DNA from: a bacterium | Lineage (GTDB): Bacteria; Sysuimicrobiota; Sysuimicrobiia; Sysuimicrobiales; Segetimicrobiaceae | Length of the DNA stretch: 64,000 bases | Direction of reading: 5' to 3' | Assembly (NCBI GenBank): GCA_035945995.1 | Contig: DASYZR010000166.1 | Coordinates: 4,855-68,854 of the forward strand | Shown here: positions 20,594 through 25,600 of the stretch, piece by piece | Numbering within the stretch: position 1 is the stretch's first letter | Layout: every line of letters starts with the position of its first letter | Translations under genes and position numbers: made by a program | Notes under the pieces: model-generated | Databases searched by the model: none | Told to the model about the DNA's origin: nothing | Seen by the model: only the letters and a program-made list of their open reading frames with translations

Positions 20594-22645
20594 ATGAGCC
20601 CGCGGACGCCTCGGCACGAGTCCGCCATGAAGGACCGACCCGGACGGGTCGCGATTGAGGGCGTGACGCCTGAGATCGACGGCGGGCGGTTCCCCGCGAA
20701 GCGGACCGCCGGGGACACCGTTGTCGTCGAGTGCGACGCGTTCGCCGACGGCCACGAGCTGCTGGCCGGTGTGCTGCGGTACCGGTGGGAGGGCGATGCC
20801 GTCTCGCGCGGGGGCTGGAGCGAGACGCCGCTCCTCCCGTTGGACAACGACCGCTGGCGGGGCATCTTTGTCGCGGCACGGGCCGGCCGGTACCGCTTCA
20901 CGGTGGAGGCGTGGGTCGATCCGTTTTCGACGTGGGCGCACGATCTCACCAGACGGGTCGAGGCGGGGCAGGACGTGCGGGTGGATCTGCGGATCGGCGC
21001 CGAGATGGTCCGGGCCGCGGCCGGGCGCGCGCCGAGCCGGCGGCGCGGGCCACAGACGCCCTCGGACCGTGCGCGGCTGACCGGGTGGGCCGGGCGTCTC
21101 GAGACGGGTGATGAGGAGGCGGTCCGGATGGCGCTCTCGGCGGAGCTGGCCGACACGATGCGCCGGCACCCCGCGCGGGACGGCGCGTCGCGCTACGCCC
21201 CCGAGCTCACCCTCGTCGTGGACCGTGAGCGCGCGCGCTTCGGCGCGTGGTACGAGATGTTTCCGCGGTCGACCTCGCCGGAGCCGGGCCGCCACGGCAC
21301 CTTTGCCGACTGCGAACGGCGCCTGCCGTACGTCGCCGGCATGGGGTTCGACGTGCTGTACCTGCCGCCGATCCATCCGATCGGCCGCGCGCACCGCAAG
21401 GGCCGCAACAACTCCGAGACGGCCGGTCCGGAGGACCCGGGGAGCCCCTGGGCGATCGGCGCCGCCGAAGGCGGCCACACCGCGATCCATTCCGACCTCG
21501 GGACGATCGACGATTTTCGCCGCCTCCTCGCGCGCGCCCGCGAGCACGGACTGGAGATCGCCCTCGATCTCGCGTACCAGTGCGCGCCGGACCATCCGTA
21601 CGTCCGCGAGCACCCGGAGTGGTTTCGCCGGCGGCCCGACGGCACCGTCCAGTACGCCGAAAACCCGCCGAAGAAGTATCAGGACATCTACCCGTTCGAC
21701 TTCGACTCGGACGACTGGCGGGGGTTGTGGAAAGAGCTCCTCGGCGTCGTGCGGTTCTGGATGCGCGAGGGCGTGCGCATTTTCCGCGTGGACAATCCCC
21801 ACACGAAGCCGTTCGCGTTCTGGCAGTGGTTGATCGCGGAGATCCACCGCACCGACCCCGACGTCATCTTCCTCGCGGAGGCGTTCACGCGCCCGAAGGT
21901 GATGTACCGGCTTGCGAAGGTGGGCTTCACGCAGTCGTACACCTACTTCACCTGGCGCACCACCAAGGCCGATCTGACGGCATACTTCACGGAATTGACC
22001 CGCCCCCCCGTGCGCGACTTCTTCCGGCCCAACCTCTGGCCCAACACGCCGGACATCCTCCACAAGTACCTCCAGGACGGGGGCCGGCCCGCGTTCGCGG
22101 TGCGCCTCGTGCTCGCGGCCACGCTCGGGGCGAACTTCGGCATCTACGGGCCGGCCTTCGAGCTCTTTGAGCACCGGTCGGCCGCCCCGGGAAACCCGCC
22201 CCCGGCCAGCGAGGAGTACCTCAACGCCGAGAAATACGAGATCAAGCGCTGGGACCTCGACCGGCCGGACAGCCTGCGCGGCCTGATCGCCCGCGTCAAC
22301 GCGATCCGGCGGGCCCACCCGGCGCTGCAGCGCGACGACACGCTCGTGTTTCATTCGGTGGACAACGACCAATTGCTCTGCTACAGCAAGACGGCGCCGG
22401 CTGGCGGCGCGGGGCAGGCAGGCGGCGCGGCGGTGCTCGTCGTCGTGAACCTCGATCCGGCGTTCGCACAGTCGGGTTGGACCACGCTGTCGCTGCCCGC
22501 CCTCGGCCTGGGTCCGGACGACCCGTATGCCGTGACGGACCTGCTGACGGACGCGCGCTACACCTGGCGCGGCCGGCGGAACTACGTCGTGCTGCGTCCG
22601 GCCGAGCAGCCGGCGCACATCTTTCGCCTGGACCGGGCGCCGTGA
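20594..22645 (+). CDS. glgE: alpha-1,4-glucan:maltose-1-phosphate maltosyltransferase
   Basis: Classic GlgE signature ([52 protein letters not shown]). 683 aa. Confidence 0.92.
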
Positions 22646-25600
22646 CCCCGTCTTCGCGGGGCGGTTCGGCCCCGTCTTCGCGGCGTGAGTCCCACGAAGG
22701 GGGAGGCGCTGTCGCCGCCCGCCGCCGCCCGGAGCCCGGCGCGCGGCGGCGTCCGCACGCCGTCCCGTTCCCCGCCGGGAGCGATCCGCTCTGGTACAAG
22801 AACGCCGTCGTCTATGAGGTGCACGTCCGGGCGTTCGCCGACAGCAACGGCGACGGCGTCGGCGACTTCGCCGGGCTGACCTCCAAACTCGACTACATCC
22901 AGAGTCTCGGCGTGACCGCGCTGTGGATCCTCCCGTTCTACCCCTCGCCGCTCAAGGACGACGGTTACGACATCGCCGACTACACCGGCATCCATCCGGC
23001 GTACGGGACGATGCGCGACTTCCGCGCGTTTCTCGCGGGGGCCCACGCCCGCGGGCTCCGCGTCATCACCGAACTGGTCCTGAACCACACCTCGGACCGC
23101 CACCCGTGGTTTCAGCGGGCACGCCGGGCGGCGCCGGGGAGCGTGGCGCGCGATTTCTACGTCTGGAGCGACACCGCGGACCGGTATCGCGACGCGCGCA
23201 TCATTTTCCGCGATTTCGAGCCTTCCAACTGGACGCTCGACCCCGTGGCCCACGCGTACTACTGGCACCGGTTCTACTCGCACCAGCCCGACCTCAACTT
23301 TGATTCGCCGGCGGTCCGCGCGGCGATGCTCGACGTGGTGGACTTCTGGTTGGGGGAGGGCGTCGACGGCATGCGGCTCGACGCGGTGCCCTACCTGTAC
23401 GAGCGCGAGGGCACCATCTGCGAGAACCTGCCCGAGACGCACGCGTTTCTCAGGGCGCTGCGCCGGCACATCGACGAGCGGTTCCCGGCCCGGGTCCTCC
23501 TCGCCGAGGCCAACCAATGGCCGGAGGACGCGATCGCCTACTTCGGTGACGGCGACGAGTGCCAGATGGCGTTCCACTTCCCGCTCATGCCGCGCCTCTT
23601 CATGGCGATCCGCATGGAGGACCGGTTCCCGATCATCGAGATCCTCTCCCAGACGCCGCCGATTCCCCCGACCTGCCAGTGGGCCATGTTTCTCCGCAAC
23701 CACGACGAACTCACGCTCGAGATGGTGACGGACGAGGACCGCGATTACATGTACCGGGTCTACGCGCACGACCCGGCGGCGCGGATCAACCTCGGCATCC
23801 GCCGCCGCCTCGCGCCCCTGCTCGGCAACCACCGCCGGCGGATCGAATTGATGAACGGGCTCTTGTTGTCGATCCCCGGCACGCCGGTGATCTACTACGG
23901 CGACGAGATCGGCATGGGCGACAACATCTATCTCGGCGACCGGAACAGCGTCCGGACCCCGATGCAGTGGAGCCCGGACCGCAACGCCGGTTTCTCGCGG
24001 GCCAACCCCCAGCGGCTCTTCCTGCCGGCGATCATCGACCCCGAATACCACTACGAGACCGTCAACGTCGAGGGGCAGCACGACAATCCGCACTCGCTGC
24101 TCTGGTGGATGCGCCGGGTGATCGCGATGCGGCAGCGCTACCGCGCGTTCGGCCGCGGCATGCTCGAGTTTCTCCAGCCGGACAACCGGAAGGTGCTGGC
24201 GTTCCTGCGCCGCTACGAGGACGAGCAACTGCTCGTGGTCGCGAACCTGTCGCGGTTCGTGCAGTACGTCGAACTGCCGCTTCAGGCGTGGCACGGCATG
24301 GTGCCGGTGGAGGTGTTCGGGCGCACGCCGTTCCCGCCGATCGGCGACCTGCCGTACCTCCTGACCCTCGGGCCGCACACCTTCTACTGGTTCGCGCTGG
24401 AGCGCCCGGCGGCGCGGGGCGCGCCTCAGCCCGAGCCGGAGGCGCGGGCGCTCGTGGCCGCGCCGGAGGGATGGGATGCGCTCGTGGCCGGCCGGGACCA
24501 CGCGCTGACCGACGTGTTGTCGACGTATGTCCGCGGCCGCCGGTGGTTCGGCGGCAAGGGACGGGTGGTGCGCGGCGTGGAGATCCAAAACGCGGTGCGG
24601 CTGCCCCTCGGGGCGGACGCGTCCGCGTACCTCGCGCTGCTCCGCGTCGACTACGTCGAAGGCGATCCCGACGTCTACGCGCTGCCGCTGGCGTTCGTCC
24701 CCGCCGGCGCCGGCGCGGACGCGGTCCGACGCGACCTGCCGCACGCCGTCATCGCCGACCTCCGCGAGGCCGCGGGCGACGGCGTGCTGTACGACGGCGT
24801 CTACGACCGGTGGACCGCCTCGGCGCTGCTCGACGTGATCGCCCGCCGGCGGCGGGCCCGCGGCGGCCACGCCGATCTGGCCGGCGTGCAGACGCAGGCG
24901 TTCCGGCGGGTCCTCTCCCCGCCCCCCCGAACCGACGGGGAGGGATCGCCGGTCGAGGCGTCCCCGTCGGGGGATGAGGTCGCGGTGAACGAGGCGAGGG
25001 TCCTGCGCGGCGAGCAGAGCAACACCTCGCTCGTCTACGGCGGCCGGTGCATTCTGAAGTTGTTCCGCCGGCCCGAGGCCGGGATCCACCCGGATTTCGA
25101 GGTCGGCCGGTTTCTCACCGAGCGCGCGGCGTTTCCGCACACTCCACAGGTTGCCGGCGCCATCGAGTACCGCGCCGGCGGCGAGACCCGCACCGTCGCC
25201 ATCCTGTCGCAGTTCGTCCCCAACGAGGGCGACGCGTGGACGTACACGCTGGACGAGTTGGGGCATTACTATGAACGGGTCGCGGCGGGGGGCCCGGTGC
25301 CGGCGCCGCCGAGCGAGGCGCTGCTCACGCTCGCGCGCGCCGAGATCCCGGTCGAGATCGTCTCGTGGATCGGCCCGTACCTCGGCGACGCGCGGCTGCT
25401 CGGGCGGCGCACGGGCGAGCTGCACGTGGCCCTGGCCTCGGATGCGCGGGATCCGGACTTCGCCCCCGAGCCCTTCACCGCGATGTATCAGCGCTCGATC
25501 TACCAATCGGTGCGGACCACGGTGCGGCGGAGCCTGCAGACGCTGCGCCGGAACCTGGGCGCGCTCGACGAGGTCGCGCGGCCCATGGCCGAGGAGGTCG

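Follow-up and report, generated by a model that had tools for sequence, protein, structure and literature searches.

The 64,000-nucleotide stretch analyzed here (the window), from a bacterium of the Segetimicrobiaceae, carries at three gene junctions copies of a short, GC-rich hairpin repeat that is translated as part of the adjoining proteins: behind the glgE/treS-mak junction (locus 1), behind the livH/livM junction (locus 2) and beside the dapA-like/hom junction (locus 3). These copies probably represent a family of very short palindromic repeats, comparable to the REP, MIRU and RPE elements, that behave as selfish or neutral DNA and survive where read-through is harmless. Comparison with relatives shows that copies are gained and lost at particular sites, that the number of units varies and that the hairpins decay after insertion; copies persist only at low-harm places, namely spacers, the first codons behind a start, C-terminal tails, surface loops and inter-domain linkers. 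An earlier note on this DNA, made from the sequence alone, had proposed a small REP/MITE-like family, which proves to be broadly right: the repeat is dispersed, exists at the nucleotide level, is read in different frames, and shows insertion polymorphism at livM and in loops of GlgE and TreS.

A 24-nt unit read through in different frames

The repeat unit consists of a hairpin core of 16–17 nt, CCCCGTCT(N1-2)CGCGGGG, followed by a linker of 7–8 nt, and units are arranged head-to-tail with a period of 23–24 nt; Tandem Repeats Finder gives 24 nt at both arrays of the window. The pattern CCCCGTC(N2-3)CGCGGGG, that is, CCCCGTCN{2,3}CGCGGGG, has five matches in the window, all on the forward strand, against 0.03 expected from dinucleotide shuffles, and the three hairpin loci previously described are all present. 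The same exact pattern has no match in the negative control, 1.08 Mb of distant treS loci obtained by a TreS-based metagenome scan (relatives at no more than 65% identity). A covariance model, R1, was built from 27 aligned repeat units; it gives eight matches of at least 21.7 bits, at five sites, in the lineage set (the window plus seven related contigs, ~190 kb in total) and nothing of 20 bits or more in the control. A looser pattern, CCCCGTC..GCGG, also strikes ordinary coding DNA by chance, for example at 59787, within the conserved SLFPRLAERR segment of livF.

Within an array the units are identical or one base apart, with no synonymous scatter, and the loop TCTNCG is common to more than 30 units. 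The two arrays of the window make up 24 nt in different ways, as 16+8 and as 17+7, a one-nucleotide indel in the loop being offset in the linker, so that their 3' halves are read in different frames; the 5' halves both read (T/A)PS, and the 3' halves SRGGS and DAGRA, respectively. The conserved object is the DNA or RNA sequence and not a protein motif. The consensus unit is stop-free in every frame, and arrays that lie in genes are stop-free in the frame used and are read through as a peptide rich in Pro, Ser, Ala, Gly and Arg. In the window, such a peptide forms the N-terminal tail in TreS-Mak and in LivM and the C-terminal one in the DapA-like protein; translated low-complexity tails at all three loci, as previously suggested, are thereby borne out, and loci 1 and 2 offer no alternative in-frame start.

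The core had been described as a 5-bp stem with a 6-nt loop. The hairpin stands, but the stem can alternatively be read as 6 bp (five G-C pairs and one G-U) closing a loop of 4–5 nt, and each array has two possible fold registers, CCCCG..CGGGG or GGGGC..GCCCC spanning the linker. The predicted RNA folds of the junctions are stable, yet not beyond those of shuffles of the same composition (z = -0.13, -1.6 and -0.24); since the folding energies match the shuffles, special thermodynamic structure was rejected as evidence. An intrinsic (rho-independent) terminator was also ruled out, as neither array is followed by a T run (CGTGAGTCCCACG..., CCGCGGATCCGCC...) and both lie inside operons and open reading frames (ORFs). 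Rfam yielded no credible family at gathering or permissive thresholds, two scans of IMG/VR viral contigs yielded no arrays, and neither the repeat unit nor its peptides have a match in the searchable literature.

Copies gained and lost among relatives

One case of insertion polymorphism is livM. No start other than its GTG at 57516 precedes the conserved first transmembrane helix (AAPALGxxLALVP). The closest LivM homologs (88–90% amino acid identity) begin VTAVRLRPAAGAAPALG or MTAARARPASFAAPGLG, and the LivM of the window begins VT[PSDAGRAAPSDAGRTAPSGA..]RIRPAAFAAPALG, i.e. VT-PSDAGRAAPSDAGRTAPSGAG-PRIRPAAFAAPALG; the gene is 20 codons (60 nt, ~2.5 units) longer than those homologs, and array 2 is absent from every livM relative examined. 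In one of them, L123, the junction DNA reads GTGACGGCCGTCCGCCTTCGTCCGGCGG, and comparison with this contig indicates that unit 3 of the array partly overlaps sequence resembling the native N-terminus of the relatives (GGCCGTCCG). The comparison of orthologous junctions that the earlier note had recommended thus reveals livM homologs that lack ~60 nt, and the loops of GlgE and TreS are likewise found filled or empty. At the same place in a GlgE surface loop, L082 has GAC-CCCGCCTCCGCGGGG-TGG (27.4 bits) and the window GAT-GCCGTCTCGCGCGGGGGC-TGG, a candidate degenerate single copy, in-frame (20796..20813, forward strand), that at 10.7 bits is not significant alone; by protein alignment the loop is empty in L084 and L085, the latter reading GAC-ACGCGC-TGG. 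In the TreS loop, a 39-nt insert with CCCCGACTCGCGCGGGG is present in L001 only.

Among relatives, the treS junction is hypervariable. Between the glgE stop and the conserved DPLWYK motif, no canonical in-frame start other than GTG 22642 exists, and the NCBI gene call (P0001) begins at the same codon. The first ~50 residues of TreS-Mak, ahead of DPLWYK, are a non-conserved tail that holds array 1. Nine of the 12 close TreS relatives (80–83% identity) start at the junction and keep the frame over tails of 32–51 residues. The codon-usage gene caller scores this tail as non-coding-like, which fits a recently inserted sequence. In all five relatives whose junction was compared, GTGA is followed by copy-like sequence (CCCCGACTTCGCGGCC, GCCCCTCTCCGCGGCG, CTCCGCCGTCCCGGAC, CGCCGTCTTCGCGGCG), and the remainder of the 96–150 nt tail varies in length and content and includes inverted copies, translated as PRGPAQSGG; the junction of L001 has one inverted copy, the only case that is not head-to-tail. 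No junction but that of the window has a fully intact stem. With five sequences compared, the paired cells amount to 73%, a value reached in 237 of 500 shuffles, with no covariation or compensatory pattern. A conserved coupling hairpin, which the earlier note had offered as an alternative to a mobile repeat, therefore finds no support at either junction, given also the absence of the array in the nearest livM homologs and the z values of -0.13 and -1.6. Nor are the tails conserved among close homologs, a conservation at the protein level, in distant homologs without the hairpin, having been named as the observation that would speak against a nucleotide repeat.

At locus 3, the single core lies within the tail (…PRGPAQTGGAAP*) at the C-terminal end of the dapA-like gene, which is on the minus strand; in L084, the orthologous tail is free of such a copy. 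It was expected beside the GTGA overlap; the copy is there, but it is placed 12 nt upstream of the overlap between the dapA-like stop and the hom start (11131-11134) and not after the junction, and it is antisense in the dapA-like mRNA, opposite to loci 1 and 2. This bears on the suggestion that the element targets or creates GTGA junctions, which finds no support. The window has a G+C content of ~70%, a coding density of ~92% by codon-usage gene calls, and 54 genes by the same caller; an exact 4-nt overlap (ATGA or GTGA) occurs in 13 of the 53 neighbouring gene pairs, about a quarter, glgE/treS counted in. Only two of these 13 overlaps carry arrays, the other eleven having nothing similar, and copies are also found in protein loops, inter-domain linkers, C-terminal tails and intergenic spacers. 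GTGA arises easily in this genome, wherever a TGA stop follows a codon ending in G. The start context shared by two loci, GTGACCCCG, recurs at 27978, a junction unrelated to these, where it is simply a Val-Thr-Pro start. Given the upstream, antisense position of locus 3 and the copies elsewhere, the common denominator is tolerated stop-free sequence and not the overlap itself.

Table 1. Genes, overlaps and repeat units at the three loci, in window coordinates
Feature	Position	Strand	Details
Locus 1, upstream gene glgE (maltosyltransferase)	20594..22645	+	Pfam GlgE_dom_N_S, GLGE_C
Locus 1, downstream gene treS-mak fusion	22642..26031	+	Pfam; N-termini of relatives
Locus 1, GTGA overlap, glgE stop TGA / treS-mak start GTG	22642..22645	+	sole canonical in-frame start
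Array 1, unit 1	22646..22669	+	core CCCCGTCTTCGCGGGG (22646-22661) + linker CGGTTCGG, 16+8 = 24 nt; translated PSSRGGSA; R1 32.3 bits
Array 1, unit 2	22670..22685	+	CCCCGTCTTCGCGGCG, 3' arm broken (G to C), then CGTGA
Locus 2, upstream gene, livH-type permease	56638..57519	+	Pfam BPD_transp_2
Locus 2, downstream gene, livM-type permease	57516..58613	+	array = residues 3-24; Pfam; N-termini of homologs
Locus 2, GTGA overlap, livH stop / livM start	57516..57519	+
Array 2, unit 1	57520..57543	+	CCCCGTCTGACGCGGGG + CGGGCGG, 17+7 = 24 nt; R1 32.7 bits
Array 2, unit 2	57544..57567	+	CCCCGTCTGACGCGGGG + CGGACGG; R1 34.5 bits
Array 2, unit 3	57568..57591	+	CCCCGTCCGGCGCGGGG + CCGCGGA; R1 24.8 bits
Locus 3, single core	11146..11161	+	CCCCGTCTGCGCGGGG; R1 29.4 bits

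The products confirmed by Pfam are GlgE, an alpha-amylase/maltokinase fusion, two BPD_transp_2 permeases, DHDPS and homoserine dehydrogenase. Several further variable elements were observed in and around these genes. In the treS N-terminal tail of L085, a 21-nt sequence, GCGTCGCCGCAGAGCCGCGGC, is perfectly duplicated in tandem (10063-10105), which points to ongoing slippage in this region. GlgE has a second variable stretch (21029-21070), with two 4-residue insertions relative to RA-RGP-DAARL in relatives; its RRGPQT resembles the reverse-frame peptide PRGPAQTGG and may be a decayed inverted copy. The rest of treS-mak and the stretch for the conserved C-terminus of its product (25799-26131) lie in different frames, and the annotated protein ends in an unrelated Arg/Ala-rich tail; this frameshift near 25.85-25.9 kb is either an assembly error or the mark of a pseudogene. 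In the liv operon, a long palindrome, GGGGCCGCGGATCCGCC…GGCGGCGTTTGCGGCCCC (57579-57618, 8-bp outer stem), lies directly 3' of array 2 in the N-terminal coding region of livM. A 16-residue insertion (TEPPSNGAASSVRDAG, 59361-59408) stands directly behind the start codon of livF, which overlaps livG by 8 nt; it is missing in two relatives at 90–91% identity and does not belong to the hairpin family, but makes livF a third gene in the operon with extra sequence just behind a coupled start. In a relative 94% identical (L124, 4628-4760), an unrelated tandem insertion behind the livM start contains a different GC-rich hairpin, CCCCTGGCGGGG, which also adjoins the family copy in the TreS loop of L001 (10845-10885), suggesting that more than one type of hairpin colonises the same permissive sites.

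Near-identical arrays in other bacteria

GTDB was scanned, one genome per species, for two consecutive units. The 36 matches obtained are about the number expected by chance; 11 of them are true multi-unit arrays of the same unit. By the NCBI labels of the metagenome-assembled genomes (MAGs), which are the majority of the supporting genomes, such arrays occur in Anaerolineae (W167, with three loci, and CSMAG_1365), Chloroflexia (two MAGs), Aminicenantes (UBA2199, with two loci, and UBA2190), Acidobacteria (one MAG) and Clostridia (one MAG). A synthetic six-frame peptide query retrieved two proteins, both with genuine C-terminal arrays, its yield being probably limited by the composition filters of HMMER, and an exhaustive search of representatives with the LivM tail retrieved a single unrelated eukaryotic repeat protein.

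In BLAST comparisons of the window lineage with 13 unrelated contigs, similarity is confined to the arrays in 12 (for example, 87 nt at E = 3e-21 in L114, and 94.7% identity over 38 nt in L117), the thirteenth, L109, having no match to the window; the array-bearing contigs also share essentially only the arrays with each other, one orthologous pair excepted. The array 1 unit and the unit of L117, from Aminicenantes, are identical at 23 of 24 positions, including all eight of the linker CGGTTCGG, and unit 2 of array 2 is identical at 23 of 24 to the unit of L114, CCCCGTCTGGCGCGGGGCGGACGG, with which it shares the 17-nt core and the linker CGGACGG. In both cases, the identity extends to positions that the search pattern leaves free.

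The arrays reside in a variety of genes: three units inside the Complex1_51K domain of a NuoF-like protein (L114), two in the N-terminal propeller of a tricorn-type protease (L093), three and two, respectively, in the linker that joins receiver and kinase domains in orthologous response-regulator/kinase proteins (L117 and L091), and others in a membrane-protein loop (L122), close to the C-terminus of an unnamed 713-residue protein (L109) and in the C-terminal tails of BamD (L126) and of a glycosyltransferase (L127). At least four reading frames are in use (APSxxGxx, PVCAGRxx, RPAQTGPx and VPPRADGA). The period is 24 nt in all nine in-gene arrays outside the window, as in both arrays of the window, and 23 nt in five intergenic arrays of Chloroflexota MAGs. 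A strict rule of 23 nt in non-coding and 24 nt in coding DNA was considered and is only half true, as some intergenic arrays of similar architecture in Streptomyces isolates also have a 24-nt period. Since the in-gene arrays all have 24 nt, the rule is one-sided: within genes, only multiples of three survive. Among the genes flanking 13 arrays, which are unrelated housekeeping genes, no transposase or recurring neighbour was found, and the ORFs flanking the arrays contain no cas domains.

Two kinds of sequence adjoin or resemble these arrays. In Chloroflexota MAGs, REP-type palindromes with a GTAG tag, such as GTAGGGGCGGTTCGCGAACCGCCCC and GTAGGGGCAATTCA…TGAATTGCCCCTAC, lie 60–90 nt from tandem arrays (L107, 5825-5846; L118, ~4460-4535; L095, 4560-4606); the half-stem GGGGCGGTTCG resembles the linker region of the arrays, and a 47-nt piece is common to one Anaerolineae and one Chloroflexia contig. 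Streptomyces isolates, a Ramlibacter and an Actinomycetota MAG have 24-nt arrays with CCCCGTC…CGCGGGG stems but with the loops TCCGTCG, TCCGACG and TCTCGCG (L104, 3380-3520; L108, 3430-3500; L121, 2700-2770; L105, 5190-5245; L120, 5700-5790), which may be related sub-families or the result of convergence.

Origin of the repeats and their relation to known elements

If the repeats are selfish or neutral DNA, arrays would lengthen and shorten within a locus by slipped-strand replication between direct repeats, and selection would filter copies to harmless positions and, in genes, to the 24-nt period. The site behind a -4 overlap would be tolerated if the ribosome terminating on the upstream gene covers the 5' arm and melts the first hairpin, so that re-initiation at the overlapping GTG would not be blocked. 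As downstream structure has been reported to lower coupling (PMC12548453), the arrays may be mildly costly rather than beneficial.

Several observations weigh against this interpretation. The arrays examined revealed neither a mobilising enzyme nor a target-site duplication or a defined insertion site, mobility being deduced from distribution only, and the evidence from the lineage covers ~190 kb. Both arrays of the window, in two events, begin at an identical offset after GTGA, which could reflect a genuine site preference or a function. The linker at times resembles the native 5' flank (exactly in L093; five of seven positions, GACGG, in livM), which hints at homology-guided copying or template switching instead of transposition; the same linkers are, however, found at unrelated loci, and are thus part of the element. 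For the same reason a target-site duplication, considered because in L093 linker and 5' flank are the same and array 1 is flanked by CGTGA, was rejected as a general rule: the linkers CGGTTCGG, CGGACGG and CGAACGG recur at unrelated loci and in different phyla. Elements of the REP type are normally species-specific, which makes near-identity across phyla unusual, and the genomes that document it are mostly MAGs.

That near-identity raises a bolder and considerably less certain possibility, namely an undescribed, ultra-small (24-nt) mobile or templated tandem element that crosses phyla, resides in-frame in housekeeping genes and is spread by a mechanism other than classical transposition. Between the source MAG and genomes labelled Aminicenantes and Clostridia, each of the two sub-variants, 16+8 and 17+7, agrees at 23 of 24 positions. 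Such a route is suggested by the lack of a transposase neighbour and of a clear target-site duplication and by head-to-tail growth; it might be homology-guided template switching, or a trans-acting enzyme that recognises the CCCCGTCT..CGCGGGG hairpin.

Other explanations dispense with selfish DNA altogether. The repeats might be functional cis-acting mRNA hairpins that block independent initiation of TreS and LivM or shield the upstream mRNA from 3' exonucleases, as the REPs between malE and malF do. Each array sets in 1 nt behind its GTG, in sense orientation within an operon mRNA, the forward-strand core forms a 6-bp stem with a G-U pair that is better than that of the reverse strand, every relative has copy-like sequence at the same offset of its treS junction, and coupled starts are known to be regulated by the RNA structure around them (PMC12548453). 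We nonetheless regard such a function as improbable: the closest livM homologs lack the array, the treS stem is broken in four of five relatives and shows no covariation, folding energy is the same as in shuffles, the same units are also antisense, in protein loops and linkers and between genes, and structure just 3' of an upstream stop is reported to lower coupling (PMC12548453). Hardly attractive either, and to our mind slightly less so, is the proposal that there is no family at all and that local tandem duplications and quasi-palindromes in permissive GC-rich DNA converge on CCCCG...CGGGG. It draws on the unrelated GC-rich insertions at the same sites (the CCCCTGGCGGGG type at livM in L124, the 21-nt duplication at treS in L085, the 16 residues in livF of the window), on the native livM sequence GACGGCCGTCCG, which already resembles part of the unit, and on the 24-nt arrays with similar stems and different loops in Streptomyces and other high-GC genomes. 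Convergence, though, would have to extend to unconstrained positions that match across loci and phyla (the linker CGGTTCGG at 8/8 in L117, CGGACGG and the 17-nt core with its loop in L114) and to the loop TCTNCG in more than 30 units, where only 0.03 chance matches are expected in the window.

The remaining explanations appear far less plausible. Selection at the protein level, for disordered Pro/Ser/Gly/Arg-rich tails or linkers that serve localisation, modification or spacing, would account for the 24-nt period of all in-gene arrays and for the frame APSxxGxx, shared by the four forward arrays in Pfam-identified genes (both arrays of the window, L093 and L114). The frame bias is equally explained by purifying selection against frames rich in Cys and Arg or containing stops, and the tails vary among close homologs, the forward array of L109 uses a second forward frame and reverse arrays two more (RPAQTGPN, VPPRADGA), the same DNA unit is also found non-coding with a period of 23 nt, and units within an array are identical in DNA, with no synonymous differences. 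Equally unlikely are binding sites for a horizontally transferred protein, such as CRISPR-repeat-like hairpins, even if near-identical units across phyla are typical of sequences that travel together with a cognate protein. The reverse complement, CGG-T-C..CCCCG...GCGCGGGG, agrees with type I-E CRISPR repeats at ~19 of 29 positions, as judged by eye and not by a tool; but there are no unique spacers, the period is just 23–24 nt, the 7–8 nt linkers are themselves repeated, no Rfam CRISPR-DR or other family matches at E <= 1, and no cas or recurring gene adjoins the arrays. Least probable of all is an assembly or sequencing artefact. Although the source and most comparison genomes are metagenome assemblies, the assemblies with arrays stem from numerous independent studies and sets of samples; the arrays keep conserved genes in frame, have units that vary by point changes, and have counterparts of similar architecture in cultured Streptomyces isolates.

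A family of short, tolerated palindromic repeats, the explanation we prefer, has precedents in several systems, none of which it fully matches. MIRUs (mycobacterial interspersed repetitive units) insert at start codons, with an ORF coupled at -4 (PMC12548453), and the arrays described here resemble them as tandem direct repeats of variable copy number at the start codons of operon genes with a -4 overlap, where translation runs through the repeat and downstream expression is preserved (PMC12548453). As in variable-number tandem repeats (VNTRs), unit number differs between relatives, by ~2.5 units at livM and as three in L117 against two in L091. The MIRU unit, however, has 40–100 bp and its own small ORF overlapping its neighbours; the present unit is a quarter to half of that size, has no stop or start of its own and is fused in-frame, and the family also occupies loops, linkers and C-terminal tails in several phyla. 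This separation is by features, and similarity to MIRUs in sequence would not be expected.

REPs are mostly found between genes that are co-directional or convergent, right behind an ORF, but also within ORFs and at N-termini (PMC3733652). In common with REPs, BIMEs and REPINs, the repeats are short, GC-rich, imperfect palindromes that are dispersed and in part inside ORFs or at N-termini (PMC3733652). They form GC-rich stem-loops, although the core of 16–17 nt is at or below the lower bound for REP-type palindromes (20–40 nt). REPs of the CGTC type have stems of 8–9 bp in which the first pairs are A-T, and a CCA tail (PMC3733652), whereas the 27-unit alignment reveals no terminal GTAG or CGTC tag, CGTC being internal at stem positions 4–7, no CCA tail, and a stem of 5–6 bp, all G-C in its 5-bp reading. 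Whereas REPs are typically inverted dimers, the arrays are head-to-tail, an arrangement negligible for REPs (PMC3733652); there is, furthermore, no gene for RAYT, the Y1 HUH transposase of REPs, among the genes flanking 13 arrays, and the units are near-identical across phyla.

RPEs (Rickettsia palindromic elements) give in-frame fusions in unrelated protein-coding genes, at positions compatible with function (PMC10969869), and the present repeats are likewise palindromic, presumably selfish DNA in-frame in unrelated genes (the loops of GlgE and TreS, the NuoF-like protein, the tricorn-type protease and the kinase linker). RPEs measure ~100–150 bp, are single-copy at each site, are restricted to Rickettsia and encode a conserved peptide; here, the element has 16–24 nt, one sixth of an RPE for the unit, is in tandem and uses at least four frames. 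With intragenic minisatellites or VNTRs the arrays share an in-gene period that is a multiple of three, copy numbers that differ between orthologs (L117 and L091) and identical units, but ordinary VNTRs are locus-specific, in contrast to a unit that recurs at unrelated loci and in unrelated genomes. Taken together, the tiny unit, strict tandem order, frequent in-frame residence in conserved proteins and unusual near-identity across phyla appear to define a new variant.

If this interpretation is correct, 24 bases are enough for selfish DNA, which can be housed in essential proteins as harmless loops and tails, and such repeats would contribute to the variation of N-termini, C-termini and linkers in high-GC bacteria. 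The annotation of such genomes would be affected as well, their start-codon calls and "low-complexity tails" being in part repeat DNA. The arrays would also serve as VNTR markers for strain typing in uncultured lineages, and those behind -4 overlaps would provide a natural test of the amount of structure that translational re-initiation tolerates downstream. Near-identical units in distant phyla, finally, point to a mechanism of transfer or copying that is worth finding.

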